Below are positions 21,558 to 40,288 of a DNA stretch of 40,966 nt, piece after piece. A model generated the notes under the pieces. That model had not been told where the DNA came from. It made no database searches and was given only the letters and a program-made list of their open reading frames with translations. How positions within the stretch are numbered: position 1 is the first letter of the stretch; the number at the start of each line of letters is the position of its first letter. This DNA is from an uncultured Anaerolinea sp. (GTDB lineage: Bacteria > Chloroflexota > Anaerolineae > Anaerolineales > Villigracilaceae). Position numbers and translations under genes: made by a program. The stretch is from contig CAZLJB010000001.1 in the NCBI GenBank assembly GCA_964559195.1, positions 1 to 40,966 of the forward strand, read 5' to 3'.

Positions 21558-24500
21558 TTATTTAAGCCATTTTGCCAGAAATTTTCCGAGTTCTTCCATT
21601 CGAATAGGCTTGCTAAGATAATCATCCATCCCTGCCTCAATGCACATCGCCTGATCACCAACCATGGCATTTGCAGTAACTGCAATAATTGGGATATGCC
21701 GACCAGTACCGATTTCATGCTTGCGAATTCGTCTTGTCGCTGTTAAACCGTCAATATCTGGCATATTAATATCCATTAATACCAGTGCAAATTCATCAGC
21801 GCGAGTCTCGATCATTTCTATTACTTCCGCACCAGTGGCCACAGATTGCCCAATTAAACCAAAAGTACGAATCTGCTGGATTAGCAAATTTTGGCTAAAG
21901 CCATTGTCATCGGCAATTAACACAGGTTTTTGATCTTGAAATCGTATGGAATACTTGATAGGCTGAGAATTTTTCGCTGTTAGCACATTATCTCCCGAAT
22001 CTGATGAAGTTTTATCAAGCGCGAGAGGCACAGAAAACCAGAATGTTGATCCTTCGCCTTTTTTCGAAATTAAACCTACATCGCCAAACATTAGATCAAC
22101 CAATCGACGCGAAATTGCAAGCCCCAATCCTGTGCCACCATATTTCCTTGTAACTTTATCATCCGCCTGCGTAAAGGGTTCAAACAAGAGTTCACGAATA
22201 TCATCAGAGATTCCGATCCCGGTATCACGAATAGTAAACGTTACCAGCAGAAATCCGTTTGGAATGATGGTTCCATTTATATCGACATCAACTCTGCCTC
22301 TTTCGGTAAATTTAACAGCATTACTCACCAGGTTGATCAGAATTTGGCGAATACGACCTGCATCTCCCAGCAATTTTGAAGGAATGATTGGGGCAATAGT
22401 TACTAACAAAAGGATCCCCTTTTGCTCGGCTTTCGCTCGAAAAAGATCAATGGTTTCCCAAACAAGATTCTTTACATGAAAGGATTCAGACTTTATTATC
22501 AGTTTACCGGCTTCGATTTTCGAGAAATCAAGAATATCATTCAATATTGTGAGTAGGGCCTGGGCAGAATCGCTCACAATTCCTGCAAATTCAAGCTGTT
22601 CATCATTCAGTTCTGTATCTAGTAATAGTTCATTCATACCGATAATGGCATTCATTGGGGTACGTATCTCATGACTCATGGTAGCAAGAAACACGCTTTT
22701 TAAATTCGATGCTTCCACAGCGCGATCTCTAGCCGCAGCCAGATCTTTATTTTTCTTCTCAATTTCTGTTGCGTAAGTTTGCATACGACTGGCAGCTTCC
22801 TGCCGTTCGATTTCCGAGCCAACCCATTGCGCCATCAAATTGATGAAATTTTTATCACCATTAGTAAATGGCCAGCTGCGCCGATCGCGGCTAAAAAATG
22901 AGAGCGTTCCATAATCCATACCAGCAACTCGTACCGGGGACCCCAAATAGGCTTCCACTTTGTGAGACAGGTAGCACGGGTGATTGGCCCAACCACTGGC
23001 TGACGCATTTTCAATACCAATTGGACCACCCTCTCTGAGAGTCTCACGGCTGTACGTTTTCCCTAGCTCAAAATTATCACCCACCTTGATTGATTTATCT
23101 GGAATTTCCACAGCAACAACATGATAATTTTCATTTTCGATAAATGAAAGTATCCCAACCTGCAAACCATACCGCTCAACACCTAGTTGTAAAAACGCCT
23201 GAAGCTTATTCTTAAAAGTATCGTGCTTGGACGCAATATTGTACAATGTGCGGATGGATTCTTCACTTTCGCGCAAAGCAGTTTCAATAGCCCGGCGCTC
23301 GGTTAAATCAGTGACCACATTAATGAAACCAGCCTCCGGATCTTCAATGTTTTTATACACTCCAGTAATTAAAACAAAAACGGTCCCGCCATCTTTTTTT
23401 CGCAAACGTAATTCACACGATAATGGTTCCTGGGCCTGTCTTTGTTCCTGGGCATTCTTAAATAATTCAATATCTTCCGGAACAATCAAATCCAACGAGA
23501 TCATCCCGATTAATTCAACTGGAGCATAGCCAAGCATGCTCGCAAAAGCAGGGTTGACATATTCAAATCGGTTTTTGGAATTTGTTATCGTGAGACCCTG
23601 TCCCATATTATTCATTACCTGGCGGGATAGATCTCGCTGATCTTTTAATTGTGATTCAACTAACTTTCGGGAGGTAATATCCTGTAACAAACCATTTGAA
23701 CCTATAAATTTACCGTTTCCATCCACCACCGGAAAAGATGTGTCCGAAAGCCAGCGGGATTCACCGGTCTTGGTAATAATCCGGTAATCACCACTCCAAA
23801 TTCCACCATTTTCACCACTACGAACACGCGAGCTTGCTTCAATAGCAGGCACTCCGGCGAATTGTCCTCGCATAATAGATTCTTGAATCAGGCTCTTGAA
23901 TACTTCTGGGGTAAGTTCTTCTACGCTAAAACCCGTTAACCGTTCTATCTCTTCTCCAATAAATGGATATTTATTATTGATCGTATCCACACTGTACGGA
24001 ACAGCATCTGCAACATTAATCGCGAGGCGGTAACGGGCTTCACTCTCCCTAAGCGCTTCTTCTGATTGTTTAAGCCGGGTTATATCAGTTCCAATCCCAA
24101 TCAGCAAATCACCTGGGCCTTTGGCATCCGTTAACATGAATATTCGCCAGGTCCCATCCTTGTGTTTTAACCGATGCTCATATGGATTCGCATCTACAAA
24201 AACCATTCCGCCAGCTGCTTGCATGACGTAAGATCGTTCAACGGCGATATCCCCACCGGAAACGCGCTCCATTTCCCACCATCCATCCGCTAATAATTCA
24301 TCCGGCTCGTACCCAAGCAGCCCTTTTACAGATGGGCTTACATATACAATTTTTCCGGCGCTATTGGAAACAAGGACAAGGTTGCCTATCGATTCCAAAA
24401 CAAAGGATGAGAGCTCCCTTTCAGATTGCGAAACAACGCGCTCGGAAAAAACATGTAAGGATGCAATCACCAATTTCTGTCCATCGGCTTCTCCGATGCC

Positions 24501-24788
24501 AAGATATGTATCCAATGAAAACTCGGAATTGTCCTGACGTTTCCAAGCTATGTGCACAGGATCGCCAACAGGATTTTGTATTCTGCCACCCTCAAATATA
24601 TCGCGATATAACTGTTTATATCCGTCAATAAAACGATCCGGGATTAATTGTTCCAGTAGTTTTCCAACTAATTCGCCGGTAGGGTATCTGAATATTCTTT
24701 CAGCCGATTGATTGGCACGGATTATTTGTCCTTCAGTATTAATAAAGAGGACACCATCCGAACTAAGAGACATTAGCAAATCAAGCAT
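21558..24788 (-). CDS. Hybrid sensor histidine kinase/response regulator with multiple PAS and GAF sensory domains
   Basis: H-box MSHEIRTPMNAIIGM, N-box LINLVSNAVKFT, G1 RDTGIGI, G2 GGTGLGLAI, C-terminal receiver LVLMDINMPDIDG...LSKP. About 650 aa of PAS-like repeats and one GAF-like block upstream. No TM segment and no HPt domain seen. Confidence 0.93.
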   Translation of the reverse strand: MLDLLMSLSSDGVLFINTEGQIIRANQSAERIFRYPTGELVGKLLEQLIPDRFIDGYKQLYRDIFEGGRIQNPVGDPVHIAWKRQDNSEFSLDTYLGIGEADGQKLVIASLHVFSERVVSQSERELSSFVLESIGNLVLVSNSAGKIVYVSPSVKGLLGYEPDELLADGWWEMERVSGGDIAVERSYVMQAAGGMVFVDANPYEHRLKHKDGTWRIFMLTDAKGPGDLLIGIGTDITRLKQSEEALRESEARYRLAINVADAVPYSVDTINNKYPFIGEEIERLTGFSVEELTPEVFKSLIQESIMRGQFAGVPAIEASSRVRSGENGGIWSGDYRIITKTGESRWLSDTSFPVVDGNGKFIGSNGLLQDITSRKLVESQLKDQRDLSRQVMNNMGQGLTITNSKNRFEYVNPAFASMLGYAPVELIGMISLDLIVPEDIELFKNAQEQRQAQEPLSCELRLRKKDGGTVFVLITGVYKNIEDPEAGFINVVTDLTERRAIETALRESEESIRTLYNIASKHDTFKNKLQAFLQLGVERYGLQVGILSFIENENYHVVAVEIPDKSIKVGDNFELGKTYSRETLREGGPIGIENASASGWANHPCYLSHKVEAYLGSPVRVAGMDYGTLSFFSRDRRSWPFTNGDKNFINLMAQWVGSEIERQEAASRMQTYATEIEKKNKDLAAARDRAVEASNLKSVFLATMSHEIRTPMNAIIGMNELLLDTELNDEQLEFAGIVSDSAQALLTILNDILDFSKIEAGKLIIKSESFHVKNLVWETIDLFRAKAEQKGILLLVTIAPIIPSKLLGDAGRIRQILINLVSNAVKFTERGRVDVDINGTIIPNGFLLVTFTIRDTGIGISDDIRELLFEPFTQADDKVTRKYGGTGLGLAISRRLVDLMFGDVGLISKKGEGSTFWFSVPLALDKTSSDSGDNVLTAKNSQPIKYSIRFQDQKPVLIADDNGFSQNLLIQQIRTFGLIGQSVATGAEVIEMIETRADEFALVLMDINMPDIDGLTATRRIRKHEIGTGRHIPIIAVTANAMVGDQAMCIEAGMDDYLSKPIRMEELGKFLAKWLK

Positions 24789-24790
24789 TG

Positions 24791-25876
24791 TTATAAATAA
24801 CGCTCCTGGTGATGCTTTTTCAAATGAGCCACCACTGAGCGTACTTGTTGTGATTGATCAGATTTACAAATTAACAGCGCATCACCTTTGTCAACCACCA
24901 CAATATCATCGATACCGATCGTGACGATCAATCTCTCATTACCATTTCCAAAAACCAGGGTATTATGGGTTTCGAGTGCAAGATGTTGGCTGTTTATGGA
25001 AATATTCCCATTCATATCGGGCAGGAGTACTTCGAAAAGCGAATCCCATGAACCCACATCACTCCATCCGAGTCCGCTGGCAGGCAAAACAGCCACCTTT
25101 TCTGCGTTTTCCATAATGCCATAATCAATAGTTTCGACCTTCAAGTCGCCCCACTTTGCCGAAATTACGGCGTCACGATCTTCTGCGGAGGCTTTGCAAA
25201 TTTGATCCAGCACATCATTCAGCGCAGGCATTTGATGTCGAAACTCAGCTAAAATTCGGTCTGTCTTCCAAATGAACATACCACTATTCCAGGAATGATC
25301 ACCGGTCCGGATCAACTGTTGGGCTGTCTTTTCATCCGGCTTTTCAGTGAAGCGTTTGACAGTATAAACCGGATAATTAAATTTCTCCTGGATCAACAAG
25401 GCTTGCTGAATATAACCATACGCTGTTGAAGGAAAGGTAGGTGTTATTCCCAGGGTAACCAGGTAATCCAATTTTGCAACCTCAAAAGCGGTCCTCATCA
25501 AGTAATCGAAAAGGTCAATGTTACGAATATGGTGATCGGAAGGCAAAATTGCCATAATAGCTTGCGGATCACGTTGATGCAAAATTGCGGCTGCCAGACC
25601 CACCACTGAGGCAGTACCGCGAGGTCCTGGCTCGATTAAGTAGTTTTCAGCTGGAATGGTCGGAACCTGGTCTCTGATTTCTGCCATTTGGTCTTCGACC
25701 GTAACAATTAATATTCGTTCCGGTGGAAAGAGATTACGCAAACGGGATACAGTGCTCTGCAATAATGTTTCTTCCCCCAGTAACGGGAGAAGCTGCTTGG
25801 GTTTATTCTTCCGGGAAACAGGCCATAACCTGGTTCCACCACCACCAGCCATGATCACAGCATAAGAATGTTCCAT
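24791..25876 (-). CDS. manC: Mannose-1-phosphate guanylyltransferase (GDP-mannose pyrophosphorylase)
   Basis: AVIMAGGGGTRLWPVSRKNKPKQLL nucleotidyl-transferase loop, YGYI, WNSGMFIW. 361 aa with no PMI/cupin extension. Its stop lies 2 nt before the kinase start. Confidence 0.85.
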   Translation of the reverse strand: MEHSYAVIMAGGGGTRLWPVSRKNKPKQLLPLLGEETLLQSTVSRLRNLFPPERILIVTVEDQMAEIRDQVPTIPAENYLIEPGPRGTASVVGLAAAILHQRDPQAIMAILPSDHHIRNIDLFDYLMRTAFEVAKLDYLVTLGITPTFPSTAYGYIQQALLIQEKFNYPVYTVKRFTEKPDEKTAQQLIRTGDHSWNSGMFIWKTDRILAEFRHQMPALNDVLDQICKASAEDRDAVISAKWGDLKVETIDYGIMENAEKVAVLPASGLGWSDVGSWDSLFEVLLPDMNGNISINSQHLALETHNTLVFGNGNERLIVTIGIDDIVVVDKGDALLICKSDQSQQVRSVVAHLKKHHQERYL

Positions 25877-25917
25877 ATCAGCCTCCTAATATTTTATAGA
25901 AATCGATAACAGATAAT

Positions 25918-27174
25918 TCATCTCGAGATGGAAATTAATTTGTACTCATTGACCAGGTAATAAATTAATAATAATGTGAATAGTACCGCCATCACAATAA
26001 CCTGCACCCAAACCACCTGGGCCAGGGTCGCGTGGAAAAAGATAATTCCCAGCACTTGCGCAACACCAGCTGCTATTACAAATCCGGTGCTTTTCCCTGC
26101 ACCCAATGAAAGTCGATAATTAACGAGCACGTTCGCCAGCGCATAAAGGGAGGTGGCGAGAGCATACAACCAGAGCAGTGTGGCAACGCCCAAATATTGT
26201 TTTCCAAAAAGGATACTTACAATCCACTCTGGAAAGGATAAGGTTAGCAGCACCACCGGTAAGGAAATCGAGGTCACAATCCCCAATGATAGCCAAAGCA
26301 AGTAGGTGTGGGGTTCACCCTTTTTATGTTTTTGCGCCACAATTGGGAACATCGTAGTCACAACCGACCAGGTTGCAAAAAATACTATTCGACCGATCAA
26401 TGCCAGGGCGGCATATTGCCCTGCCAGCTCAGCCGGGAAAAAGCGCTTTACCAACAGAACATCACTATTATTAATTAATATTTGTCCAAGTTGAGAAACC
26501 AATACCGGCAATGCAAACAAACTTAAGGTTTTCTGCATTTTCTTATCTGGAAACACTCCGGCAGGCAAACCCTTTACCGCCAGTTTCGCGGTCAACCACG
26601 TCAGTACAAATGACAAACTGATGCCAAACACTGCGCCCACAATTGAAAAGCCCAACAAAACAAGACCAATTCCAATTAAGAAGCGCGTCCACATTTCAAC
26701 CTGATAGGTTAAGGCCAAAACCCCAAAACGAGTCTGCCCCTGCAGAACTCCTCGTTCTACTCCCTGAAGCAGGCTAAAAGGAAGTGCGATGCCAAATACT
26801 ATAAACGGGATGGCAGATGCAGTATTAAAAAACGTTTGCCAGAAGGCAGCCCCAATCGCAAACACGGTAACCAATAGCAGCCCAAACCCAAACCCAACTC
26901 GTTCCGCCCACTTTAAAACCCCCGCCAAGGCTACCGAATCTCCATCCGCAGTATATATGGCTGCATAACGGGCTGTAGTCATTTGAAGCGGAACAGTAAT
27001 AAAGGTAATAACCAACAGCAAAGTGACAATAAGTGATAAATCGGCAAACATAGCCGGACCAAGCCAGCGTCCGAGGATCAGGTTATAAATATAATTGCCA
27101 GCATTGACGACGGTCATGCTAATCATCAAAATCAAGCCGGCAGAAGTAATCGAACGGTTATTTTCTGATTTCAT
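25918..27174 (-). CDS. Polysaccharide/oligosaccharide flippase (MOP/Wzx-like)
   Basis: About 12-14 TM helices spread over about 420 aa, a layout typical of Wzx/MurJ-type exporters. ATG 27174 chosen; an in-frame GTG at 27198 is an alternative start. Confidence 0.78.
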   Translation of the reverse strand: MKSENNRSITSAGLILMISMTVVNAGNYIYNLILGRWLGPAMFADLSLIVTLLLVITFITVPLQMTTARYAAIYTADGDSVALAGVLKWAERVGFGFGLLLVTVFAIGAAFWQTFFNTASAIPFIVFGIALPFSLLQGVERGVLQGQTRFGVLALTYQVEMWTRFLIGIGLVLLGFSIVGAVFGISLSFVLTWLTAKLAVKGLPAGVFPDKKMQKTLSLFALPVLVSQLGQILINNSDVLLVKRFFPAELAGQYAALALIGRIVFFATWSVVTTMFPIVAQKHKKGEPHTYLLWLSLGIVTSISLPVVLLTLSFPEWIVSILFGKQYLGVATLLWLYALATSLYALANVLVNYRLSLGAGKSTGFVIAAGVAQVLGIIFFHATLAQVVWVQVIVMAVLFTLLLIYYLVNEYKLISISR

Positions 27175-27234
27175 GGATCCCGATTTTTCTTCCACCACTG
27201 ACTTTCGAAAATTAGTAGTAAATTGGGTTTAAGG

Positions 27235-27597
27235 TTAGGCGAGAGCAGCTTCTACTGTTTCGAGCAGAATACGCGAACTTGACGGTTTTGTTAAAAAGCC
27301 GCGGACACCAATTTGCGCAGCAGCCGCCATTTCCTGATCATCGCCACTGGCAGTCAGGATAATAACAGGCAGTTGGAGTAATTCATTATCGGTGCGAATC
27401 AAGCGCAACAAACTGAGACCATCCATTACCGGCATGGATAAATCCAAAATGGCAAGGTCAACCGGCGATTTATGCAAAATATCCAATCCACTCTGCCCAT
27501 TGGATGCAATCAGGACTGTATAACTGGCTTTCCGTAGCGTATAGCTAAGAATCCGTTGATTGTTTGAGTCGTCATCAATAATCAAGATTGTGGTCAT
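27235..27597 (-). CDS. Stand-alone response-regulator receiver (CheY-like)
   Basis: DDD acidic pocket (8-10), phospho-acceptor D52 in AILDLSMP, T82 in ILTAS, K104 in LTKP. 120 aa, no output domain. Confidence 0.9.
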   Translation of the reverse strand: MTTILIIDDDSNNQRILSYTLRKASYTVLIASNGQSGLDILHKSPVDLAILDLSMPVMDGLSLLRLIRTDNELLQLPVIILTASGDDQEMAAAAQIGVRGFLTKPSSSRILLETVEAALA

Positions 27598-27642
27598 AGG
27601 CCGGGTGAGTTCCAGGGTATGGCTTGAAAGAAAACAAACATT

Positions 27643-27987
27643 CTAAAAAGCCTTCGGGATAATTTGGGAAGGATCGATCGAAGTAAATACCTGATCAAAC
27701 TTTGTCAGCTTGAGAATTCGCGCAGCAGCTTCTTCGCGCGGCCATACCAGGCGAACATCTCCGCCCCCGATGCGTGTTCGTTTTAAGGCGCTAACCAATA
27801 CGGCCAGACCAGCCGAATCAATCATTTTAACATCCGTTAGATTGAATACCAGATGAATTACACCCGCATCAATAAACTCATCACAAATCTTTCGTAATGC
27901 TGGTGCATCAAAGGCATCCAAACGACCGGAAAGAACGATCGAAACAATTTTGATAATGTGTTCGGTGGGAAAAATTTGTAAAGACAC
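27643..27987 (-). CDS. STAS-domain anti-sigma-factor-antagonist-like protein (copy 2)
   Basis: VKMIDSAGLAVLVSALK with conserved Ser58 in DSAG, and ILKLTKFDQVF C-terminal helix. GTG start with an AAGGAG RBS 5 nt upstream. Confidence 0.85.
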   Translation of the reverse strand: MSLQIFPTEHIIKIVSIVLSGRLDAFDAPALRKICDEFIDAGVIHLVFNLTDVKMIDSAGLAVLVSALKRTRIGGGDVRLVWPREEAAARILKLTKFDQVFTSIDPSQIIPKAF

Positions 27988-28048
27988 AATAACTCCTTAT
28001 GCCATAGGTGCCAATTATTAAATAATCTTCGTTGAATTTTTCAGGACG

Positions 28049-28456
28049 CTATGATAGTTTCTTCATCAGTGTCCATTTATTTTGGTCGCCAGTTCTCTGA
28101 TAATCCATTTTATCAACCAGTAATTGTATTATTGCCATACCATACCCGCCCACGGCCAGACCGGTGGGATCTGGCATTGTAATTGCATCAAAATCAAGAA
28201 TCGCAGGTACCCCGCTGTCAAATGTTTGAATATTCAACACATCCTCGTTGATACTCAAATCAATTATGATGGAACCGTTTGGGTCGCCACGATAAGCATG
28301 ATCCACCAAATTAATAAGAAGTTCATGCAATGCCAATTCGCATCCACTGACAAGTTCATCCGAAATTTTTGTTTCGAGTAGGATGGAACGCAGGTTTTCA
28401 TCAGCGACGCGGATTTCTGGATAGGTAGATTTTATAACTATTTGTCTATTGTTCAT
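28049..28456 (-). CDS. RsbW/SpoIIAB-type serine protein kinase (anti-sigma-like, HATPase_c_2)
   Basis: N-box ELALHELLINLVDHAY, G-box FDSG and GGYGMAIIQLLVDKMDY. 135 aa. Start is 2 nt after the phosphatase stop. Confidence 0.85.
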   Translation of the reverse strand: MNNRQIVIKSTYPEIRVADENLRSILLETKISDELVSGCELALHELLINLVDHAYRGDPNGSIIIDLSINEDVLNIQTFDSGVPAILDFDAITMPDPTGLAVGGYGMAIIQLLVDKMDYQRTGDQNKWTLMKKLS

Positions 28457-28458
28457 GA

Positions 28459-29979
28459 TTAAATTATCTTGATAACAATGATAGTACGATCATCATCTTG
28501 AGAAAGGCCGCTAGAGAAATCACTCGTAGCCTCAAAGATTAGGGCGCCAATTTCTACGGAAGATCGCTGCCGGGATGAATCCAATAATTTCAATAATCTA
28601 TCATATCCAAACATTTCTCCTTCAGAATTATGCGATTCCGGGAATCCATCAGAGGCCGCAATAAAAATATCGCCGGGCGATAACGCCAGTGTGTAGGATG
28701 AATAATCGTAAGCCCCGAATATTCCTACCGGTATATCCTGCGCTTCAAGCAAAACAGGAACATTATTTACTGGCACGTACAATATGGGACTTTGTCCTGC
28801 ATTACAGTAAGACAGACTTAACGAAGATCGATCCAGAATACCAATAAATGCCGTTGTGAACATTCCCACAGTAGAGAAATCGTCCAGAAGATCAGCATTC
28901 AATCTTTTCATCAACTGATGGGGTTCAGTGAAAGGCATATTTCGCGCCGCAGACCGGGCAACCGTCCGAGTCATACTCATTAATAAAGCTGCCGGCATGC
29001 CTTTTCCAGTCACATCTCCCAATAGAAAAATTAGGGGCTGGTTTGGCAGTAAAACAATATCAAAAAAATCACCCCCCACTTCTAGGGCAGGGTTTGATGT
29101 AGCATAAAAATCAACACCTGGCACCAGAGGTAGCTTTTGGGGAAGTAAGGCAGTTTGAACCTGGTGAGCCAGACTCAATTCAGTTTCAAGGCGGGTTCGA
29201 GCCAAGGCCTCCTGAACGAGAAGGAAATTTTCTATCTGGGCACCGGCCTGTCCAGCCAGCGCTTTTGCAAGTTTGATATCGGGTGTAGTGAATTCAATAT
29301 TTTTATTAAAAACACCCAGAGCTGCAAAGATGTCTTCCTTGATAGGAATAGATACCATCATGAGGTTTCTCAAACCTGCAGGCAGATTTGCCAGATCCTT
29401 AAAATTGTGCTGTTCTGGGTTGTTCCGGTAATAAGTAGAAATAACCACAATCTCATCATTCGTCAATGGATTAATCCCAAACTGACAAACAATTGCTGCC
29501 TGACCAGGCTGTAGCATAATCGCAAATGCACCATTGACATCCAGAAGTCTGCAAGCTTCACTGACAAGTAATTCAAATAGTGCTGAACTTTCCAGACTAT
29601 TTTGGGGCGATTTGCTCAGGTCATAAAGCGCCACAAGTCGGTCCTGGGTTTCAACCAGGGCAGCCGTCAGACTTTCAAGCTCTGCTTCATTATTTAGAAG
29701 GCTCGAAAATAATTCAGCCATTGTGTCAGCGAAGGATTGCCAAAATTCACCAGTAAGACCATATATCTGAATTGCAAGTCCATATTCAGAACCAGACATT
29801 AATGGAAACCCGGTCGGATTTACGTCCATTGGATAGGAACCAATAATTCGATCCTTATCAACCAGGCGAACACAAATAGCGCCAGCGCGAATGCAAATTG
29901 CTGCGATGGCATGAAATCGGCTTTGATGATTGACAAATGAATCAAAAAGCATAGGGACTGAAAACCTATCCGAGATCAA
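28459..29979 (-). CDS. GAF-domain-containing PP2C (SpoIIE/RsbU-type) serine phosphatase
   Basis: SpoIIE-domain motifs GGDFFDIV, GDVTGKGMPAALLMS, YCNAGQSP, SDGFPES, DDRTIIVIKI. An N-terminal region of about 270 aa is GAF-like. TTG 29979 overlaps the upstream stop (TTGA); ATG 29952 is an alternative start. Confidence 0.9.
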   Translation of the reverse strand: MISDRFSVPMLFDSFVNHQSRFHAIAAICIRAGAICVRLVDKDRIIGSYPMDVNPTGFPLMSGSEYGLAIQIYGLTGEFWQSFADTMAELFSSLLNNEAELESLTAALVETQDRLVALYDLSKSPQNSLESSALFELLVSEACRLLDVNGAFAIMLQPGQAAIVCQFGINPLTNDEIVVISTYYRNNPEQHNFKDLANLPAGLRNLMMVSIPIKEDIFAALGVFNKNIEFTTPDIKLAKALAGQAGAQIENFLLVQEALARTRLETELSLAHQVQTALLPQKLPLVPGVDFYATSNPALEVGGDFFDIVLLPNQPLIFLLGDVTGKGMPAALLMSMTRTVARSAARNMPFTEPHQLMKRLNADLLDDFSTVGMFTTAFIGILDRSSLSLSYCNAGQSPILYVPVNNVPVLLEAQDIPVGIFGAYDYSSYTLALSPGDIFIAASDGFPESHNSEGEMFGYDRLLKLLDSSRQRSSVEIGALIFEATSDFSSGLSQDDDRTIIVIKII

Positions 29980-30305
29980 CTTTGGAGCGCAGACTTTTCA
30001 TCAGGGTAAATCGTAAACGCTTTATCCAACCTTGTAAGTTCGAATATTACTCTGACGGGTTGCTGAAGTGCACACAAAGAAAGTTCACCACCCTTTTCGC
30101 GACAATGTTTCAGGCCCTGTACCAGAGTTGAAAGTGCGGAAGAATCAACAAAATTTACATCCGCCAAATTAACCACCAGATGAGTCTGGCCCAAATCGAA
30201 CTGCTCCTTTAACCAGTCACGCACTGGCCCAACTTCATGAGCATCAAAACGACCTTTCAGATATAAAATGGGAATATTTCCCTGAGACGATTTTTTTATT
30301 TCCAT
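29976..30305 (-). CDS. STAS-domain anti-sigma-factor-antagonist-like protein (copy 1)
   Basis: LYLKGRFDA, VNFVDSSALSTLVQGLK with Ser55 in DSS, IFELTRLDKAF. 109 aa. Confidence 0.88.
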   Translation of the reverse strand: MEIKKSSQGNIPILYLKGRFDAHEVGPVRDWLKEQFDLGQTHLVVNLADVNFVDSSALSTLVQGLKHCREKGGELSLCALQQPVRVIFELTRLDKAFTIYPDEKSALQS

Positions 30306-31540: not shown

Positions 31541-31551
31541 ATTTTTACTCC

Positions 31552-32316
31552 TTAACGATAGACGCCCTTAAAATCGTTCGCCCAGATCACTGAAATGTCA
31601 CGCAAAAAACGCTGGACTTCTTTTTTTGTATTGACCTTTGAGCCTGGAGCATCGATCCATGAGACTGGCACTTCGGCGATTTTATAACCAAATTTATAAG
31701 CAAGATACAGGATTTCCAGGTCGAACGAAAAGCCCATAATGGTTTGTTTACCGTGCAGCTTTTTAGCGACTTCAGATGTATACATTTTAAAACCACATTG
31801 CGTATCCTTGACCCCAATATGCATCAAATACTTTACTATCAGGCGCAAACCTCCGCTCAAAATCCTGCGCAGCAGGGATTTCTTACCTTCGTCTGCACCT
31901 TCTGCAGCACGCGACCCGACTGCCAGATCATAACCATCCTGATCAAGTTTCGCCAACAATTTCGAGACTTCTTCAATGGGAGTCGAATTATCAGCATCAG
32001 CAAATAAAATATATTTCCCACGCGCTGCCAGCATTCCCCTTCTGACAGCACTGCCTTTTCCTCCATTCCTAGGAGTTCTTAAAACCGTCAAATTGACCAG
32101 TCCCAAATCCTCGCACAGTTTTGCGGTCTGATCTTTCGATCCATCGTCCGCAATCAACAATTCCCATGCAAAACCCAAATCTGAGACGTGTGATGCGATT
32201 GCTCCGATTGATGTAATAATCCGGTCTTGTTCATTATAGGCCGGAATTACAATCGACAGATACGGAGATTCGACAAGCGGTGTTGTTTTCCATTTAACAT
32301 AATTTTCGTATGGCAT
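31552..32316 (-). CDS. Glycosyltransferase family 2, polyprenyl/dolichyl-phosphate hexose synthase-like
   Basis: LSIVIPAYNEQDRI, ADDGSKDQT, FADADNS (DxD), QCGFK. Short (254 aa) soluble GT-A enzyme, as in Ppm1/DPM1/ALG5-type enzymes. Confidence 0.85.
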   Translation of the reverse strand: MPYENYVKWKTTPLVESPYLSIVIPAYNEQDRIITSIGAIASHVSDLGFAWELLIADDGSKDQTAKLCEDLGLVNLTVLRTPRNGGKGSAVRRGMLAARGKYILFADADNSTPIEEVSKLLAKLDQDGYDLAVGSRAAEGADEGKKSLLRRILSGGLRLIVKYLMHIGVKDTQCGFKMYTSEVAKKLHGKQTIMGFSFDLEILYLAYKFGYKIAEVPVSWIDAPGSKVNTKKEVQRFLRDISVIWANDFKGVYR

Positions 32317-32357
32317 GCGGGTGGCCTTTCTTCAAATAAATGGTTAATATTATATAC

Positions 32358-33521
32358 TCATGCAACAAAAATCCAATTCACAAAAATTGTCACAAACATA
32401 CCGAGCAAGACAGCAAAACAAATCAGCATTGTCCGATCGACACTCTCCCGGCGACCCCACCAACCCAATAGCATAAATGCGGGAAATGACGTCAAAACAT
32501 ATCGGATAATGCTGCTTGTTGCACTTGCTGAAGGTATTAACAGTATCAATAAAACAAAGATTGCATAACCTTCTCCCAGTCGAATCCAGATAAACGGAAC
32601 CATCACTAGGAAAGCCAGAAGGGTGGTTGTATTCCAAAAGTTAGTCATCCAGCTTTTATTGACCGTTGTACTCAATAATAACTTAATGTTTTGAACAATT
32701 ACAGACACAGGGCCAACGTTTTGCCGGCCCCAGGCCGCCTGGGTCTCAATAAAAGCCAGTGGGCGCTCGAAGTTTCTCTGCAAAAAATAGATATATGCAA
32801 TCAAGCCAAGTGGAATAATTGCAATAATTAATAAATCGAACCAATGCTCCCGAAAACCATGCAGCAGATTGGTCCAACTTTCCTTCTTATGCAATGTTTT
32901 CAAAGACCAACCCTGAACACGCAGCCACTCCCATATCACCAACGGCCACAAAAGAACACCCAGGTTTCGAGTGGCAGCCGCCAACATGCCAATTAAGGCC
33001 GCCGCAATCCACATTTGCCGGCGAGCATAATACATGGTTGCCAGGGCAAAAAGCAAAAACAGACTCTCGGTATAAACACTGCTGAAATAAAAGGAAGTTG
33101 GAAATAATGCCAGGTAAAAAACCGTTCTTTTGGCCGAGTCGCTGTCAAGTTCAAGTTCTGTTAATTTATATAAAAAAAACAATGCCCCTAAAAAGGCAAC
33201 ATTACTGAGCAAGAATCCAGCCAGAATTACATCATCCCCAACCAGAGGTGCCGTAAGCCGCATAAGAAGCGGGTATACTGGAAAAAATGCAACATTACTT
33301 TGTTGCTCAGGGCGGTACCAATAACCGTTCTCGGCAATATCAACATAGTATTGGCTGTCCCACTTGGCCCACATCGATAAAAAAGGTGAGTTCAGATTTG
33401 CTATCCAATGACCCGCGTCTGTGGGAAGCATTAAATCTCCCGCCATACCCACGCTAAATATTAATAGGCGCGATACCAGGAAAGCCAAAAGGGGGAGTAC
33501 CATCCATTTATAGGATTTCAT
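32358..33521 (-). CDS. PIG-V-like GT-C membrane glycosyl(mannosyl)transferase
   Basis: About 10 TM helices. The first extracytoplasmic loop has WDSQYYVDIAENGY...VAFFPVYPLLMR, the motif I associate with the PIG-V (GT76-like) family. ATG 33521 overlaps the upstream stop (ATGA); the track ORF extension to 33587 lies inside the upstream gene. Confidence 0.68.
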   Translation of the reverse strand: MKSYKWMVLPLLAFLVSRLLIFSVGMAGDLMLPTDAGHWIANLNSPFLSMWAKWDSQYYVDIAENGYWYRPEQQSNVAFFPVYPLLMRLTAPLVGDDVILAGFLLSNVAFLGALFFLYKLTELELDSDSAKRTVFYLALFPTSFYFSSVYTESLFLLFALATMYYARRQMWIAAALIGMLAAATRNLGVLLWPLVIWEWLRVQGWSLKTLHKKESWTNLLHGFREHWFDLLIIAIIPLGLIAYIYFLQRNFERPLAFIETQAAWGRQNVGPVSVIVQNIKLLLSTTVNKSWMTNFWNTTTLLAFLVMVPFIWIRLGEGYAIFVLLILLIPSASATSSIIRYVLTSFPAFMLLGWWGRRESVDRTMLICFAVLLGMFVTIFVNWIFVA

Positions 33522-36163
33522 TGGGTCACATCCAGCTTCAGGTCCTGAAATATCACAGGTCCTCCAAATGCGTCCATTCCGATCCAACCATCTACACCTG
33601 TGATGAGAATATTAGCGGCTATTTCCTTATCATCCACAGATATTGTTATTTTCCCGGCATCAACCGCTACTTTTAACACCATAGATTGAGTATTGGAGTT
33701 TAATTTAGCCGTTCCCTGCCCTTTAAATTTACCATTGGCATCATTTGAACCCCACAAAATACCTTTTCCGCCATTGATAAATCGCACAACGTAGGAATTA
33801 TTCTTAGTGCCGCGCTCTGACATATTCAGAATAAATCCGCCACCCACAGTGGATGATCCGCTGGGCAGCGTTATTTTCGAGCTAATCGTATAAACTGAGG
33901 CCTGCACGCCGGAATTCCACAGGTAATCTGCAACATTGGACACAGTCTGAGTAATTGTGTTGTTTCCAATCGTCCACTTACCACTAACCACACGCTGGTC
34001 AGTAAATCCATCCAATGCAGAATAATTCCCCTTAAAAGCTGCCCCGACCCCATCCACTGTGACTTCATCATAAGCTACGCTTGCCACCGATGTCAGTAAT
34101 CCGATATAACCATTATTTTGATTTGACCCAAAGGGTACACTCTGGATCACCATCCGATCATCCAGATATATGGAATAGGACGATTCCCCGCTGGTCACTC
34201 TCAAAGTGTGATGATCTGTGCCAGCATGGTTAACTTCTGCATAGCCCTGATTTTTATAAACGCCATTGGCATCAAAATAGCCCCAAATTAGGGCGTTATC
34301 ACGTTTGTCAGAATAACGTACCATCGACGAGCCGGTTAATCTGTCACTATTCGGCATATTGAATACCAGGCCGGCCCCGCTGCCCTGCTGATGCGTCAGG
34401 CCAATCTGATAACTGAAGTTCTTGTAGGTAGTTTTGGTATAGATGGCAGTCAGATCGAAGCCATCAGTGCGTGTTTGGACAAAATTCCCATTCTGAAAAC
34501 TCCAAGCTCCATTGATTGCCACCCAGTTCTGATCAGAAAGCTTACCAGTAAATACGCCGTGATACGGAGATTGTCCTCCGATAACGGCACCCGAAGAATC
34601 AACAGGGCCGGTCGTGCTTCCGGTGGAACCTGGTGTAGCCGGAACAGGAGTAGTTTTTGCGTTTCCAGAAACCGTCGAAGTGGATCTTACATGAACGCTA
34701 CCAGTATTGGTTAAAATTCCCGGAGTTGGGCCGCCATTTACTGGCTTTGGTTTTGTCGGGCTGGTTATTGTGGAATTAACTTTTGTGACAATTGGTCCGG
34801 GAGTCTTGGGAACGGGAGTAGACTGGCCGGGAGTCTTTGAAATGTGAGCTGGTGAACCTGTTATCGAAACAGGCGCAAGCGGGCCAGTCGGTGCGCCGGT
34901 CACACCGAACAATGGGTAAACCTCCACCAGCGAGAAGGCTACCGACGAAGCGGACGTGATCAGGCCGATGCTGCCTTGCTTGCTTTGTAAGGGCACATCT
35001 CTAACCAGAAGCTGATCGTCAAGAAATACATCAAAAGAACTATCCCCGGAAAATATTTGGAAATTATGCAACCCAGTTCCCGCTGGAGGAATACTGGTAA
35101 ATCCCTGACGGGTAAAGGCACCATTCGGATCAAAGTAACCCCAAATGACAGCGTCGGTTTGATCAGAAAAACGCACCACCTGTGCACCATTGACCTGGTA
35201 CGGAGATGGCATATTAAACAGTACACCCGCACCCTGACCGGAGTTATGGTTAAAAGTTGCGCGTAAGGTAAAATTCTGAAAAGTGCTTGTTTCATATCCC
35301 ATACCCGCGTTTAGAACAACCGGATCGGATTGCACCATTTTTTTATCTGCAATTTTCCAAGTTCCGGCAAACGGCACCCAGCCTGCACCTCCGGGATTCT
35401 GATCAAAATCGCTGGTATAAACCAGATTACCTGGATTGGGGTTATCAGCAGAGGTTAATTTAAAGGTATCGAAAATAGCCGGACCCAAAGTATAAAAACC
35501 GATCAGCCCATTTTTATAAAAAAGCGGGCGGTCTTCAATCAACTTTTGACCATTCAATTGGACAATATACGTGTTCTGGTAGACATACAGGTCCAGGCGA
35601 AATTCGGTGGTGTTGATGGAAAGCGGAACTTGAATCTGAGTGATAAAACTTCCAGAAGTATCCATATAACCGGCCACCAGGAAAAGAGTATTTGGATCTG
35701 GACGGGACAGGTAAATACGCTGCTGCTTGGCTGTCATATTTGGATATTGAGCGTTAAAGGATATGCCAGCCTCGCGTGTATCCTTTTTCAAGGTTATATA
35801 AACACTCGCATGGTATGGGGTATCCTCAATTAGTTTTGAAGGAATAAAAACCTGGGCAGAAGTATCACCCCCAACCGTCTGCGCCAAGGCTGAATCCCGA
35901 ATTGTCCAAACCCCATCCCCAAGAAACCACCTGCGCAGGTTAACATCATCAAAATTTTGTTCATAGGGTAGCGTAAAAGTGGTAAATTTATCTTTTGGGG
36001 CTAATAGGAACTGAATGGTACCGAGCAAAATCGCCACGGCAATAACCAACCCAACCGCAGAGAATACGGAGCGATTACTCGGCAAGCCTGGTATGCGAGT
36101 CCGTATACGGTTGAGCAAATTTTCAAGTTGAGTGACGATTTTTTTTAAAAAAGATAATTTCAT
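33518..36163 (-). CDS. Membrane-anchored extracytoplasmic protein with four ConA/LamG-like beta-sandwich repeats and a Pro/Thr/Ser-rich linker
   Basis: N-terminal single TM (VFSAVGLVIAVAILLGTIQFLL). Four repeats of about 170 aa share the pattern G.W.i....Q...y.NF......G.GAG..FNM......vVRfSd....iWGYfD.NG.f..QG......H...v......v.LDD. The linker lies between repeats 2 and 3. Confidence 0.8.
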   Translation of the reverse strand: MKLSFLKKIVTQLENLLNRIRTRIPGLPSNRSVFSAVGLVIAVAILLGTIQFLLAPKDKFTTFTLPYEQNFDDVNLRRWFLGDGVWTIRDSALAQTVGGDTSAQVFIPSKLIEDTPYHASVYITLKKDTREAGISFNAQYPNMTAKQQRIYLSRPDPNTLFLVAGYMDTSGSFITQIQVPLSINTTEFRLDLYVYQNTYIVQLNGQKLIEDRPLFYKNGLIGFYTLGPAIFDTFKLTSADNPNPGNLVYTSDFDQNPGGAGWVPFAGTWKIADKKMVQSDPVVLNAGMGYETSTFQNFTLRATFNHNSGQGAGVLFNMPSPYQVNGAQVVRFSDQTDAVIWGYFDPNGAFTRQGFTSIPPAGTGLHNFQIFSGDSSFDVFLDDQLLVRDVPLQSKQGSIGLITSASSVAFSLVEVYPLFGVTGAPTGPLAPVSITGSPAHISKTPGQSTPVPKTPGPIVTKVNSTITSPTKPKPVNGGPTPGILTNTGSVHVRSTSTVSGNAKTTPVPATPGSTGSTTGPVDSSGAVIGGQSPYHGVFTGKLSDQNWVAINGAWSFQNGNFVQTRTDGFDLTAIYTKTTYKNFSYQIGLTHQQGSGAGLVFNMPNSDRLTGSSMVRYSDKRDNALIWGYFDANGVYKNQGYAEVNHAGTDHHTLRVTSGESSYSIYLDDRMVIQSVPFGSNQNNGYIGLLTSVASVAYDEVTVDGVGAAFKGNYSALDGFTDQRVVSGKWTIGNNTITQTVSNVADYLWNSGVQASVYTISSKITLPSGSSTVGGGFILNMSERGTKNNSYVVRFINGGKGILWGSNDANGKFKGQGTAKLNSNTQSMVLKVAVDAGKITISVDDKEIAANILITGVDGWIGMDAFGGPVIFQDLKLDVTQ
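34560..34905 (-). other. Low-complexity Pro/Thr/Ser/Gly-rich linker-coding segment within the 881-aa protein (approximate bounds)
   Basis: Translates to GAPTGPLAPVSITGSPAHISKTPGQSTPVPKTPGPIVTKVNSTITSPTKPKPVNGGPTPG...TTPVPATPGSTGSTTGPVDSSG. Confidence 0.7.
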
Positions 36164-36230
36164 ATGACTATTCTAGTACTAGATTTACCTGAAAAACTAG
36201 TTGAATTACACGGTTGCTCCAACAAAAATA

Positions 36231-39110: not shown

Positions 39111-39157
39111 ATTTCTGGGTCTCAATCAAGGTAAGCCAACGGACCCAATATCCGGTG

Positions 39158-40288
39158 TTACTGAATTTTCGCGCGAATTTCAGCAAAATAAGCATCCAAT
39201 TCACCGCGTAATTCCCTGCTGCGCTTTACAAGGTGCTGTTGTATATTTTCCCGATTTAAAATGACAGTTTTAATTCCAACAAGCAGCGTCTCCGCTAAAA
39301 ATGGTTGGTTGATGTTCAAACTGTGCTCTGACATACCAAGGTAGTCAACCAATTCCTGCACTTTAACATCATAAACCAAACCAAAAAATGGTTTTCCCAG
39401 GATCGAAGAAATAACCAGTGTATGCAGGCGCTCGGCCAAAACCAGGTCACAGCTTGAAATAATTTCACCCGCTTCCTGAGCAGTTTGTGGATCATGAACA
39501 ACAAATGAAATGTCTGGAATTCGCTTTGCAAATTCTTTTAAGACGGATAAATCGTCATTCGCTTTAAATTTACTTTGCATCGGCAGCGCATGAATAGTAA
39601 TGGGTTTTTCCGCATTGAGTCTGGTCAAGCAGTCAGCCAGGTTTTGTAAAAAACCTTCCCATGCCTCCCGGTTTTCGATATCAAAATTCAAATTAAGCGC
39701 CAGGTGAAGCCTACCAGTCGGGTAAGCAGACACTCTACCCGGCGTAAATACTTCAGGGGAATTCGCAAAAACTGCATCAGGCACCCTGCGCATTTTTTCA
39801 GGATTGATCTTTAATCTCTGGCAGGTTTTATAGGATTTATCATCCCGAACAGAGACAAAATCCACCTGTGTAAGGATCATCCGTGCCAGGCGATCCCCTC
39901 CAGCCGAAAGCAAAGGCCCCACACCAATATTACTCATGATTACTTTTTTTCGGGCAACCAACTTTGTAAATGTAACGGACGCCAAAATCATCAGCAACGT
40001 CGAATATCGATTACGCCCCACGCTGGCATATAATTCCTTGATAATACTGCCCCCGCCGAAAAATAAAATATCACTGGTTAATAAATGGCGCAAAAAGCGT
40101 GGCAGCTCCCTGGTAGTGTGAAAAGACTCCACATCATAATTCGGTCTTAGATAAGATGTGGTAAATTCAGGATCGTAGGAATTGACTGCATAATGATGCT
40201 CCCGCCCCAACTGGGCCAAAAAAGTCTCCAGAAGCAGTTCATCTCCAATATTAAATTGTCCATGTGTGCCCAGGAAGGTTATTTTCAT
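39158..40288 (-). CDS. Polysaccharide pyruvyl transferase family protein (CsaB/WcaK/EpsO type)
   Basis: MKITFLGTHGQFNIGDELLLE N-terminal motif and C-terminal AERLHTLVISSILGKPFFGLVYDVK motif typical of the pyruvyl-transferase family. 376 aa. First gene of the cluster. Confidence 0.82.
   Translation of the reverse strand: MKITFLGTHGQFNIGDELLLETFLAQLGREHHYAVNSYDPEFTTSYLRPNYDVESFHTTRELPRFLRHLLTSDILFFGGGSIIKELYASVGRNRYSTLLMILASVTFTKLVARKKVIMSNIGVGPLLSAGGDRLARMILTQVDFVSVRDDKSYKTCQRLKINPEKMRRVPDAVFANSPEVFTPGRVSAYPTGRLHLALNLNFDIENREAWEGFLQNLADCLTRLNAEKPITIHALPMQSKFKANDDLSVLKEFAKRIPDISFVVHDPQTAQEAGEIISSCDLVLAERLHTLVISSILGKPFFGLVYDVKVQELVDYLGMSEHSLNINQPFLAETLLVGIKTVILNRENIQQHLVKRSRELRGELDAYFAEIRAKIQ

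Follow-up and report, generated by a model that had tools for sequence, protein, structure and literature searches.

A conserved gene cluster of Chloroflexota and Actinomycetota as a candidate Wzy-independent, phosphorylation-switched module for the synthesis of a pyruvylated extracytoplasmic glycan

What does a bacterial gene cluster build when it combines glycosyltransferases, a pyruvyl transferase, a flippase and a large lectin-like surface protein with two signalling layers, and holds neither the polymerase nor the initiating transferase of an ordinary capsule locus? The question is raised by 14 consecutive open reading frames (ORFs) that run on the minus strand from position 40288 down to 21558, over 18.7 kb, of a contig from an uncultured Anaerolinea sp. 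(Chloroflexota; GenBank CAZLJB010000001.1). The window analysed here is this whole 40,966-bp contig, and the assembly holds no sequence past its ends. A first-pass annotation, made from the letters alone, had read the cluster as one transcription unit that builds and regulates a surface glycoconjugate. Our analysis leads us to favour, with moderate confidence, the reading that it is a self-contained Wzy-independent module for a pyruvylated extracytoplasmic glycan, equipped with its own phosphorylation switch.

All domain calls of the first-pass annotation were reproduced by Pfam and NCBIfam searches, and its statement that this is not a classical Wzx/Wzy/PCP/OPX capsule locus was borne out. 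Neither Wzy/O-antigen ligase nor Wzz/PCP, Poly_export or Bac_transf/WecA-type families were found in the scanned window ORFs or in the called genes within ±10 kb of four annotated relatives, and PF04932, PF02706, PF02563, PF02397 and PF00953 were not found in the scanned window ORFs or in the genes of the related loci L001-L006. The Pfam and NCBIfam scans thus leave a Wzx-like flippase as the only member of the classical set, in agreement with the reported absence of Wzy, Wzz/PCP, OPX and an initiating phosphoglycosyl transferase. As to the suspicion that a polymerase, a co-polymerase or an initiator might stand just outside, the contig ends at the window, and the genes that precede the pyruvyl transferase in close relatives are unrelated.

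Comparison between genomes shows that the genes of the cluster belong together. The 14 window proteins were searched against all ORFs of 86 loci anchored on the 964-aa protein of the cluster (a predicted GT-C enzyme, described below) with flanks of up to 10 kb, and presence was counted in 50 loci with full flanks (at least 8 kb on each side), 25 from Chloroflexota and 25 from Actinomycetota (Table 1). For the flippase and the hybrid kinase the Chloroflexota counts are limited by flank length, and a second scan was centred on the flippase in metagenome loci: the flippase is found in Chloroflexota loci wherever the flank extends to it, and an orthologous hybrid kinase (582-751 bits) follows it directly in 7/7 Anaerolineae metagenome loci, while in the Thermoflexales loci L040 and L041 the hybrid kinase closes the cluster. 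The pyruvyl transferase gene adjoins the GT-C gene in all 50 full-flank loci, and the gene for the 881-aa lectin-like protein does so in 25/25 Chloroflexota loci. A synteny comparison, as suggested in the first-pass annotation, shows that the gene set is co-conserved in both phyla and its order is shuffled between lineages. Anaerolineae, the window included, have the order pyruvyl transferase, GT-C, lectin-like protein, PIG-V-like GT-C, GT2, GT4, STAS, PP2C, (RsbW), STAS, REC, flippase; Caldilineae and Thermoflexales have GT2, GT4, STAS, PP2C, RsbW, STAS, REC, flippase, pyruvyl transferase, GT-C, lectin-like protein, PIG-V-like GT-C, hybrid kinase; and in Actinomycetota the genes are arranged in several other ways, in some cases on divergent strands. 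Gene fusions provide useful Rosetta-stone links between parts of the cluster, namely PP2C with an RsbW-like kinase in L001 (19093-21006, 637 aa), REC with PP2C in the Litorilinea locus L003 (5171-6439, 422 aa) and GT2 with GT4 in L005 (5890-7830, 646 aa). Collectively, the gene set is a conserved module and not a chance neighbourhood, and the synteny data effectively exclude a chance juxtaposition of regulators and enzymes.

The nearest relatives of the window cluster come from freshwater and lake Anaerolineae metagenome-assembled genomes, and carriers include cultured strains: Litorilinea aerophila (L003), Microbacterium spp., among them M. halimionae CECT 8593 (L059), Agreia bicolorata VKM Ac-1804 (L057), Mycolicibacterium palauense, Mycolicibacterium iranicum (L072) and Actinophytocola xanthii. 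An actinobacterial-type cluster (STAS, PP2C, RsbW, GT-C, pyruvyl transferase, flippase, GT2, GT4, REC, hybrid kinase) also stands in a metagenome-assembled genome labelled Synechococcus sp. UW140 (L058, CALRJN020000004.1), in an order nearly identical to that of the Microbacterium loci L071 and L082, which suggests a binning error or horizontal transfer.

The defining enzyme of the module would be the 964-aa protein, which the first-pass annotation had listed as an unknown 960-aa polytopic protein. Its polytopic nature was confirmed, and its kind can now be proposed. (The length of 964 aa is the mechanical call from a TTG start; close homologues have 954-960 aa.) Hydropathy places about 11-12 hydrophobic segments within residues 12-507 (roughly 1-510), while the remaining 450 or so residues form a soluble region, and the basic, R/K-rich N-terminus fits an N-in topology. 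An AlphaFold2 (AF2) model, built on an alignment of 33 homologues (pLDDT 83.5, pTM 0.83), has helices that agree with the hydropathy segments, within the 7-13 transmembrane helices by which GT-C enzymes are recognised. After the first transmembrane helix comes a 65-residue external loop (residues 28-93) in which D48-E49 is invariant among the 33 homologues, down to 43% identity; the same loop holds the block G74-E76-F77-R78-V79-R80-Y81 of that alignment. When the model was compared with the PDB by Foldseek, mycobacterial AftD (6w98) was the best match (E 8.9e-8), followed by yeast and human STT3 (3.5e-5), AftA (3.1e-4), ArnT and AglB, with a probability of 1.00 for AftD, STT3, AftA and ArnT and of 0.60 for AglB. 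A C-terminal beta-sandwich of 140-160 residues matches carbohydrate-binding modules (CBMs) of families 6, 35 and 61 and domain III of Cry toxins. Because topology, acidic loop and fold matches combine, the protein fits the structural description that PMC11127046 gives of CBM-bearing GT-C enzymes, and it is thus a predicted GT-C-fold glycosyltransferase with a CBM-like domain, the second GT-C of the cluster beside the PIG-V-like protein.

By profile searches, this GT-C falls outside all existing Pfam/NCBIfam GT-C families, such as PMT, STT3, AftD/DUF3367, YfhO, ArnT and others, and appears to form a small, discrete family of its own. The window protein has no Pfam/NCBIfam match at E ≤ 0.01; ten distant representatives of the family match no Pfam GT-C model, two of them giving CBM-type C-terminal matches only; and the family profile has no real match among PDB sequences, so that the GT-C kinship is seen by fold comparison alone. 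The WWDxG motif of STT3, AglB and PglB was not found in the window protein, which has only 'QQPWWINIARD', with invariant W607-W608 and no D-x-G after them. Among 1.84 billion representatives the family accounts for only 168 clusters at 50% identity, and 124 of 185,579 species genomes carry it. The co-conserved GT2, which resembles DPMS, ArnC and GtrB, together with the flippase, suggests a polyprenyl-phosphate-linked sugar as the putative donor of the enzyme.

The remaining enzymes would fit around such a donor. The soluble GT2 has as its nearest solved relatives the Pyrococcus dolichyl-phosphate (Dol-P) mannose synthase 5mlz (E 8e-18 over the full catalytic domain), ArnC and GtrB, and its best NCBIfam matches are PpgS, AglJ, ArnC, PgfS and a Dol-P-hexose transferase, none of which reaches its cutoff; the GT2 is predicted to be of the GtrB/DPM1-like type of polyprenyl-phosphate sugar synthase. 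Since these nearest relatives make polyprenyl-monophosphate sugars, the missing initiating phosphoglycosyl transferase is plausibly explained. The pyruvyl transferase is CsaB-like without being a CsaB equivalog (TIGR03609 144 bits against a cutoff of 213.1). Those members of its family that have been characterised are cytoplasmic and depend on phosphoenolpyruvate (PEP), and their substrates are lipid-linked intermediates (PMC6801904, PMC6030368); a lipid-linked acceptor must therefore exist before flipping. The flippase is a co-conserved Polysacc_synt member of the MOP superfamily, Wzx-like rather than GtrA-like. A phmmer search of PDB sequences returned nothing for the pyruvyl transferase, the PIG-V-like protein, the GT4 or the flippase.

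As to the sugar, ManC appears to be an accessory, variable member of the cluster and not part of its core. Its TIGR01479 score lies below the cutoff of 373, which is set for the bifunctional enzyme. The gene stands in or beside the cluster only in the window, L103, L043, L027 and L086, and in the flippase-centred scan it lies between flippase and hybrid kinase only in the window and one other contig. Mannose is probably the best guess, because ManC accompanies the cluster in the window, L103, L043 and L027, in L006 the trio has a phosphomannose isomerase gene next to it, the PIG-V family consists of mannosyltransferases and a Dol-P-mannose synthase is the top match of the GT2.

In Chloroflexota, the GT-C gene is followed by that of the 881-aa protein, for which the description as a four-repeat, lectin-like, anchored protein was upheld by self-alignment, membrane anchor and fold matches. 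A short cytoplasmic helix and a single transmembrane segment at residues 36-54 precede four mutually homologous beta-sandwich domains (self-alignment z 7-55), the third of which matches PF06439 (3keto-disac_hyd/DUF1080) with 40.6 bits against a cutoff of 26.8. Domains 2 and 3 are separated by a 105-residue linker, 62% T/P/G/S and predicted to be disordered; in the AF2 model (pLDDT 78.8 overall) residues 419-523 fall below 50. Foldseek matches are neurexin LNS arrays, BT3469 (DUF1080), galectins and CBM66 (TM-score 0.86, root mean square deviation 1.9 Å). A GH16-like catalytic role, suggested by a homologue named 'family 16 glycoside hydrolase', is disfavoured, since the matches are non-catalytic lectin and CBM folds; for the same reason we treat the protein as a putative sugar-binding protein rather than an enzyme. 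An identical 881-aa protein is also present on a 22,983-bp ENA contig.

The two signalling layers noted in the first-pass annotation, a partner switch and a hybrid kinase with a REC protein, proved to be parts of the conserved module, Actinomycetota included. Phosphorylatable STAS proteins, an RsbW-type kinase and a PP2C phosphatase, the elements of a partner switch, are all present, and no cognate sigma factor is found at the loci: a sigma-70-family gene was not found in the window cluster or in the conserved blocks of L001-L005, and a DNA-binding output domain was not found in the window cluster; a sigma factor may still be encoded elsewhere. The metal-binding motifs GDVTGKG, DGF and DDDRT of the PP2C protein and the N and G boxes of the kinase are readable in the sequence. 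The serine of the D-S motif is kept in 47/52 orthologues of the first STAS protein and in 41/41 of the second, and a STAS gene directly follows the GT4 gene in most related loci that carry partner-switch genes. Actinobacterial clusters have HisKA-HATPase-REC-Hpt hybrid kinases and a lone REC. By analogy with the systems compared below, the partner switch, fed by a phosphorelay, probably gates the pathway post-translationally.

The layout in the window is in line with a single unit. In order, the gaps between ORFs are 32, 67, −4, 41, 11, 47, −4, 2, 61, 45, 36, 41 and 2 nt; recomputation agreed with the earlier figures for the largest gap (67 nt, 36164-36230), the two 4-nt overlaps (33518-33521 and 29976-29979), the two 2-nt gaps and the 230-nt gap after the last gene (21328-21557). 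The overlap at 29976-29979 hinges on the TTG start of the PP2C gene; were the gene to start at an ATG that lies 27 nt further downstream, a short gap would take its place. Upstream, the proposed terminator was substantiated by folding against shuffles (40525-40489; ΔG −17 kcal/mol, z = −5.26, 0/200 shuffles as stable), and the 310-nt leader (40289-40598) is as AT-rich as stated (GC 0.306, compared with 0.437 in the whole window). Of ten intergenic pieces from within the cluster, none folded better than shuffled controls, and a check for internal terminators that would split the cluster thus found none that is stable in the gaps. The terminator-like consensus matches on the minus strand inside the cluster are all located in coding regions, in several cases those of membrane proteins. 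Taken together, tight packing, the upstream terminator and leader, the lack of internal hairpins and the joint recurrence in dozens of genomes support the claim that the 14 genes behave as one unit, and the sequence is consistent with their co-transcription.

From the observed gene layout, domain and fold identities and co-conservation, we infer a function for the cluster, and that inference extends to the sugar, the acceptor and the order of the steps, as well as to co-transcription and to what the STAS proteins act on. The soluble GT2 would charge polyprenyl monophosphate with a hexose, probably mannose from ManC-made GDP-mannose, and the GT4 and the PEP-dependent pyruvyl transferase would elaborate the resulting lipid-linked sugar, or one related to it, on the cytoplasmic side of the membrane. 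The Wzx-like MOP flippase would then carry the lipid-linked sugar across, where the 964-aa GT-C, with Asp48-Glu49 in its putative catalytic loop, would transfer it once or repeatedly to an acceptor glycan outside the membrane, held by the CBM-like C-terminal domain. The whole would amount to an expanded three-component system of lipid-phosphate-sugar synthase, flippase and GT-C. In Chloroflexota, the PIG-V-like GT-C would put on further residues, probably mannosyl, outside the membrane, and the four-domain lectin-like protein would bind or organise the product. For regulation, a signal may pass from the hybrid kinase, by way of an Hpt domain where one is present, to the stand-alone REC protein and on to the PP2C phosphatase, which, against the RsbW-like kinase, would set the phosphorylation state of both STAS proteins; the target of the latter would lie in the biosynthetic machinery, with the neighbouring GT4 or a complex of flippase and GT-C as the likeliest candidates, and would not be a sigma factor. 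The five enzymes common to both phyla (the 964-aa GT-C, pyruvyl transferase, GT2, GT4 and flippase) would make up a minimal complete route, and the fact that they stay together across two phyla amid changing surroundings suggests a self-sufficient unit.

Several observations weigh against this reading. The TM-scores of the 964-aa model to solved GT-C enzymes are modest (0.28-0.47) despite the good E-values, a level to be expected when membrane proteins of several domains share about 10% identity. The GT2 is far under every NCBIfam equivalog cutoff, and a housekeeping WecA/TagO-like initiator encoded elsewhere could start an undecaprenyl-diphosphate unit, with the GT2 as a supplier of side-chain donor. 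ManC, the suggested source of activated mannose, is not present in most related clusters. The hybrid kinase of the window has no Hpt domain, which weakens the proposed route from kinase to REC, and PP2C and RsbW are found in only about half of the actinobacterial loci, so the switch is not obligatory for the enzymes. Finally, terminator-like sites number 36 against 19.6 ± 5.2 in shuffles (window positions 21000-40966).

On a rival reading, the enzyme serves proteins instead of polysaccharides. The GT2, GT4 and pyruvyl transferase might build a short lipid-linked oligosaccharide for an AglB/PglB/PMT-like oligosaccharyltransferase, namely the 964-aa GT-C, whose main target in Chloroflexota would be the T/P/S-rich linker of the 881-aa protein in a glycoprotein layer. 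STT3 and AglB are among the structural matches of the GT-C, AglJ is among the best family matches of the GT2, and in Haloferax a GT2-initiated Dol-P route likewise ends in a GT-C (PMC3871713); the constant adjacency of the GT-C and 881-aa genes in the Chloroflexota loci and the linker itself, so rich in T, P, G and S, would fit as well. However, the best match is a polysaccharide enzyme, AftD, the C-terminal domain resembles carbohydrate-binding modules, the invariant tryptophans of 'PWWIN' do not belong to a WWDxG motif, and Actinomycetota keep GT-C, pyruvyl transferase, GT2, GT4 and flippase without a homologue of the 881-aa protein, so we hold protein glycosylation to be unlikely. A different objection takes the cluster for an appendage of an ordinary Wzx/Wzy or TagO-initiated pathway, whose initiator and polymerase or ligase (Wzy, LCP) would be encoded elsewhere, with the cluster adding a pyruvylated side branch and its regulators controlling transcription. 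WecA and TagO initiators often lie outside polysaccharide clusters. The cluster does hold a Wzx-like flippase, only a 41-kb contig is at hand with the remaining genome unseen, and classical three-component systems serve decoration (PMC11127046). Against this stand the failure to find Wzy, PCP and phosphoglycosyl transferase families in the scanned window ORFs or in the called genes within ±10 kb of four annotated relatives, the persistence of the five enzymes together across two phyla while their neighbours change, and the want of a DNA-binding output domain or sigma factor in the window cluster; we consider such a dependence improbable.

The regulators might also form a unit of their own, if a glycan-synthesis set merely abutted an independent stress-signalling set of partner switch and two-component system. 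Partner-switch modules usually regulate sigma factors, and the patchy occurrence of PP2C and RsbW in actinobacterial loci and the variable ManC could be read in this direction. The genes are not arranged that way, however: in the window the genes for the STAS, PP2C, RsbW and REC proteins stand among those for the enzymes, with GT4 on one side and the flippase on the other; in Caldilineae, Thermoflexales and Actinomycetota the regulators remain inside the enzyme cluster although orders are rearranged; and at least one STAS gene is present in 24/25 Chloroflexota and 18/25 Actinomycetota loci. Two abutting units are accordingly very improbable. Our preferred reading, a self-contained switched module for a pyruvylated glycan, can be sharpened into a bolder proposal, which we put forward tentatively and with low confidence. 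Its core, made up of the new GT-C, the pyruvyl transferase, the GT2, the GT4, the Wzx-like flippase and the partner switch, might be an unrecognised bacterial polyprenyl-monophosphate glycan route, in which the DPM1-like GT2 initiates, as in haloarchaeal N-glycosylation, the unit is pyruvylated and flipped, the GT-C polymerises it or transfers it en bloc in place of Wzy or a ligase, and STAS phosphorylation gates flux directly, while in Chloroflexota the lectin-like protein reads or bears the product. If true, this would mean a non-SLH surface anchoring by pyruvyl-glycan and lectin in Chloroflexota, a clade surveyed as having lost CsaB/SLH.

Table 1. Features of the cluster and its upstream boundary in the window, with presence of homologues in the 50 full-flank loci.
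Feature	Position	Strand	Basis	Chloroflexota	Actinomycetota
Intrinsic terminator behind the unrelated gene upstream, which stops at 40599	40489..40525	−	stem-loop and T-run; marks the 5' boundary of the cluster		
AT-rich leader/promoter region	40289..40488	−	GC 0.285; holds the conserved element 40311-40354		
Polysaccharide pyruvyl transferase, 376 aa, no transmembrane segment	39158..40288	−	PF04230 122 bits	25/25	25/25
Predicted GT-C-fold glycosyltransferase of a new family, 964 aa	36231..39125	−	AF2 model, Foldseek, hydropathy, invariant residues		
Type-II membrane-anchored lectin-like protein, 881 aa, four ConA-like/DUF1080/CBM66-like domains	33518..36163	−	PF06439, Foldseek	25/25	0/25
PIG-V-like GT-C mannosyltransferase homologue, 387 aa, polytopic; 4-nt overlap at start	32358..33521	−	PF04188 52 bits (cutoff 22.4)	22/25	0/25
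GT2, polyprenyl-monophosphate sugar synthase type, 254 aa, soluble	31552..32316	−	PF00535	24/25	22/25
GT4 (GT-B fold), cytoplasmic, 395 aa	30353..31540	−	PF13692 and PF00534	24/25	24/25
STAS protein 1, 109 aa, DSSAL, Ser55	29976..30305	−	PF01740 73 bits	24/25	18/25
GAF-like and PP2C (SpoIIE-type) serine phosphatase, 506 aa	28459..29979	−	PF07228 138 bits, weak GAF matches	24/25	13/25
RsbW/SpoIIAB-like serine kinase, 135 aa	28049..28456	−	PF13581 60 bits	22/25	12/25
STAS protein 2, 114 aa, DSAGL, Ser58	27643..27987	−	PF01740 54 bits	24/25	14/25
Any STAS protein				24/25	18/25
Single-domain response regulator, REC only, 120 aa	27235..27597	−	PF00072 98 bits	23/25	19/25
MOP-superfamily Wzx-like flippase, 426 aa, polytopic	25918..27198	−	PF01943, PF13440, weak MatE	21/25	25/25
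ManC mannose-1-phosphate guanylyltransferase, 361 aa	24791..25876	−	TIGR01479 301 bits, PF00483, PF22640		
Cytoplasmic hybrid histidine kinase, 1076 aa, PAS x3-GAF-HisKA-HATPase_c-REC	21558..24788	−	Pfam; no convincing transmembrane segment	10/25	20/25

The 5' boundary of the cluster is placed at the pyruvyl transferase because upstream neighbours differ even between the near-identical clusters L001 and L002. Within the leader, promoter-like hexamers occur at 40416-40389 and 40378-40350 in a consensus scan, and an element on the minus strand at 40311-40354, about 25-65 nt upstream of the ATG of the pyruvyl transferase, reads ATTGTAATCATCCTGATAGGATT...TTATCAGGGCTATA and includes the inverted repeat CCTGATA/TATCAGG. 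It is kept in L007 (about 8760-8810) and L009 (about 165-215), whose GT-C proteins are 83-84% identical to that of the window; the three aligned sequences follow the pattern ATTG(T/C)AAT(C/A)ATCCTGATAGG(A/G)TT...ATCAGG(G/A)CTA(T/C)A, and the remaining leader is unalignable. The element was not found in L001. It may be an operator or promoter element. A cyclic di-GMP or other riboswitch, considered for so long a leader, is unsupported, because neither the whole window nor the leader by itself matched any RNA family in Rfam. The promoter consensus scan as a whole is uninformative (37 sites against 43 expected); its top sigma-70-like site, TTGACA-17-TAAAAT (11/12, 21387-21359, minus strand), lies upstream of an IclR-family regulator gene (20515-21327) that comes after the cluster on the same strand, consistent with a transcription unit of its own for that gene.

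Beyond the boundaries, the ORF upstream of the terminator (3' end at 40599-40966, minus strand) runs off the contig; it is rich in Gly, Thr and Asn, has the C-terminus ...GQLVGYIVNAGGSSTAHVCFKSNEHPLEPVPPSVQLLK and matches no Pfam family. The other 21 kb of the window encode unrelated functions: a MarR-like regulator, an NAD-binding protein, an aldolase, a SIS protein, PPK2, a penicillin amidase, UbiA, a CDF transporter, an ABC-F protein, an MFS transporter, ProC, RuvA and YebC. CDF and PPK2 genes occur both in the window (7498-8433 and 13908-14711) and in the variable upstream flanks of L001 (6657-7577) and L002 (1047-2526), a recurrence that hints at local rearrangement around the cluster rather than a stable neighbourhood. 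A stretch of about 680 nt without any ORF (17370-18053) lies inside the kilobase of lowest GC (0.349 for 17001-18000), flanked by a 139-aa ORF without a family and an NAD-binding/epimerase-like gene, and Rfam is empty there.

Little is understood of the cell envelopes of Chloroflexota, least of all those of Anaerolineae and Caldilineae with their abundant filamentous forms, and hardly any glycan pathway has been assigned to them; the module offers a concrete, conserved candidate. Its GT-C family has cultivable members in Microbacterium, Agreia, Mycolicibacterium, Actinophytocola and Litorilinea and is therefore genetically tractable. The locus also adds what appears to be a phylogenetically independent and unusually complete partner switch on a polysaccharide machine instead of a sigma factor, with hybrid kinase, REC, PP2C, kinase and two STAS proteins in one place, and so bears on how partner switches control extracellular polysaccharide synthesis, a question raised by the work on Vibrio Syp and Anabaena Hep. 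The cluster was not described in the literature searched for the gene combination in Chloroflexi or Actinobacteria and for pyruvylated mannans of Microbacteriaceae, the coverage of which is incomplete, so that this absence is no proof. What appears to be new is the GT-C family, the invariant partnership with pyruvylation and the complete embedded signalling chain, across two phyla; each type of component, and the overall logic, has precedent.

The closest precedent for the enzymes is the three-component system, represented by GtrA/GtrB/Gtr*, by CsbB/GtcA/YfhO and by Citrobacter youngae ORF15/ORF13/ORF12, the founder of GT136, which comprises a GT2-type synthase, a MATE flippase and a GT-C with a CBM (PMC11127046). 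Both systems have a GT2-type polyprenyl-phosphate synthase (predicted here), a flippase (of MATE/MOP type in GT136, and only putatively dedicated to the lipid-linked donor here) and a GT-C, and ORF12, like AftD and EmbC, bears an extracytoplasmic CBM-like domain on the GT-C, as does the 964-aa protein. They differ in that GT4 and pyruvyl transferase are invariant partners here, which implies an elaborated, pyruvylated donor and not a plain monosaccharide, in that the GT-C here has no sequence-detectable tie to any Pfam/NCBIfam family, and in the embedded partner switch and phosphorelay. Unlike the targets of three-component decoration, a pathway for the backbone or acceptor glycan was not linked in any locus examined. 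Among the mycobacterial and corynebacterial enzymes (AftD 6w98, AftA 8if8, EmbA-C, and MptA/B with Ppm1), AftD is the top structural match; polytopic GT-C domains with large extracytoplasmic CBM-type beta-sandwiches are shared, as is a Ppm1/DPMS-like donor synthase, and the family described here occurs in some Mycolicibacterium species. Sequence identity, however, is about 10% with no profile match, the protein here is smaller than AftD, and it is tied to pyruvylation and a Wzx-like flippase, neither of which accompanies arabinan or mannan synthesis.

The Agl pathway of Haloferax volcanii (AglJ/G/I/E, flippase, AglB) assembles an oligosaccharide on Dol-P, which the GT2 AglJ starts and a GT-C finishes (PMC3871713), and the cluster would resemble it in the proposed DPM1-like GT2 start, the flip and the GT-C transfer, with AglJ and AglB among the family and fold matches. 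It differs in its bacterial host, the missing WWDxG and the score of its GT2 (61 bits against the AglJ cutoff of 325), and the protein acceptor is a feature of Agl. With the CsaB/SLH system of Firmicutes (PMC6030368, PMC6801904) the cluster shares a CsaB-related PS_pyruv_trans enzyme, and a likely pyruvylated surface glycan that could be the ligand of a surface protein, whereas its enzyme, with 144 bits, misses the CsaB cutoff of 213 and its surface protein uses ConA/CBM66-like domains. No SLH match was found in any scanned window protein, nor TagO/TagA or MnaA in the cluster, and a phylum survey describes CsaB/SLH as lost in the monoderm clade that contains Chloroflexi (bioRxiv 10.1101/2021.05.31.446380).

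For the switch, partner-switch control of polysaccharide synthesis already has published precedents. In Anabaena, HenR (REC-SpoIIE), All4160 (STAS-glycosyltransferase) and Alr3423 form a switch that directly controls a polysaccharide glycosyltransferase (bioRxiv 10.64898/2026.04.08.717354), and polysaccharide production is under partner-switch control by SypA/SypE in the syp locus of Vibrio fischeri (PMC4517449) and by HptB-HsbR-HsbA in Pseudomonas (PMC5085249, PMC6482189). The phospho-serine STAS, the RsbW-like kinase and the PP2C phosphatase, the absence of a sigma factor from the locus and the placement in or beside polysaccharide genes are common to these systems and the present one, as is the receiver domain that couples the switch to hybrid kinases, with REC-PP2C and PP2C-kinase fusions in relatives of the window cluster that recall HenR, SypE and HsbR. 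The differences lie in the hosts, here Chloroflexota and Actinomycetota, in the two separate STAS proteins and in a pathway based on GT-C rather than on Wzy or a synthase. By these comparisons, the cluster would fall outside the Wzx/Wzy capsule and CsaB/SLH classes and appears to work like a three-component or AftD-type GT-C pathway placed under a SypE/HenR-type switch.

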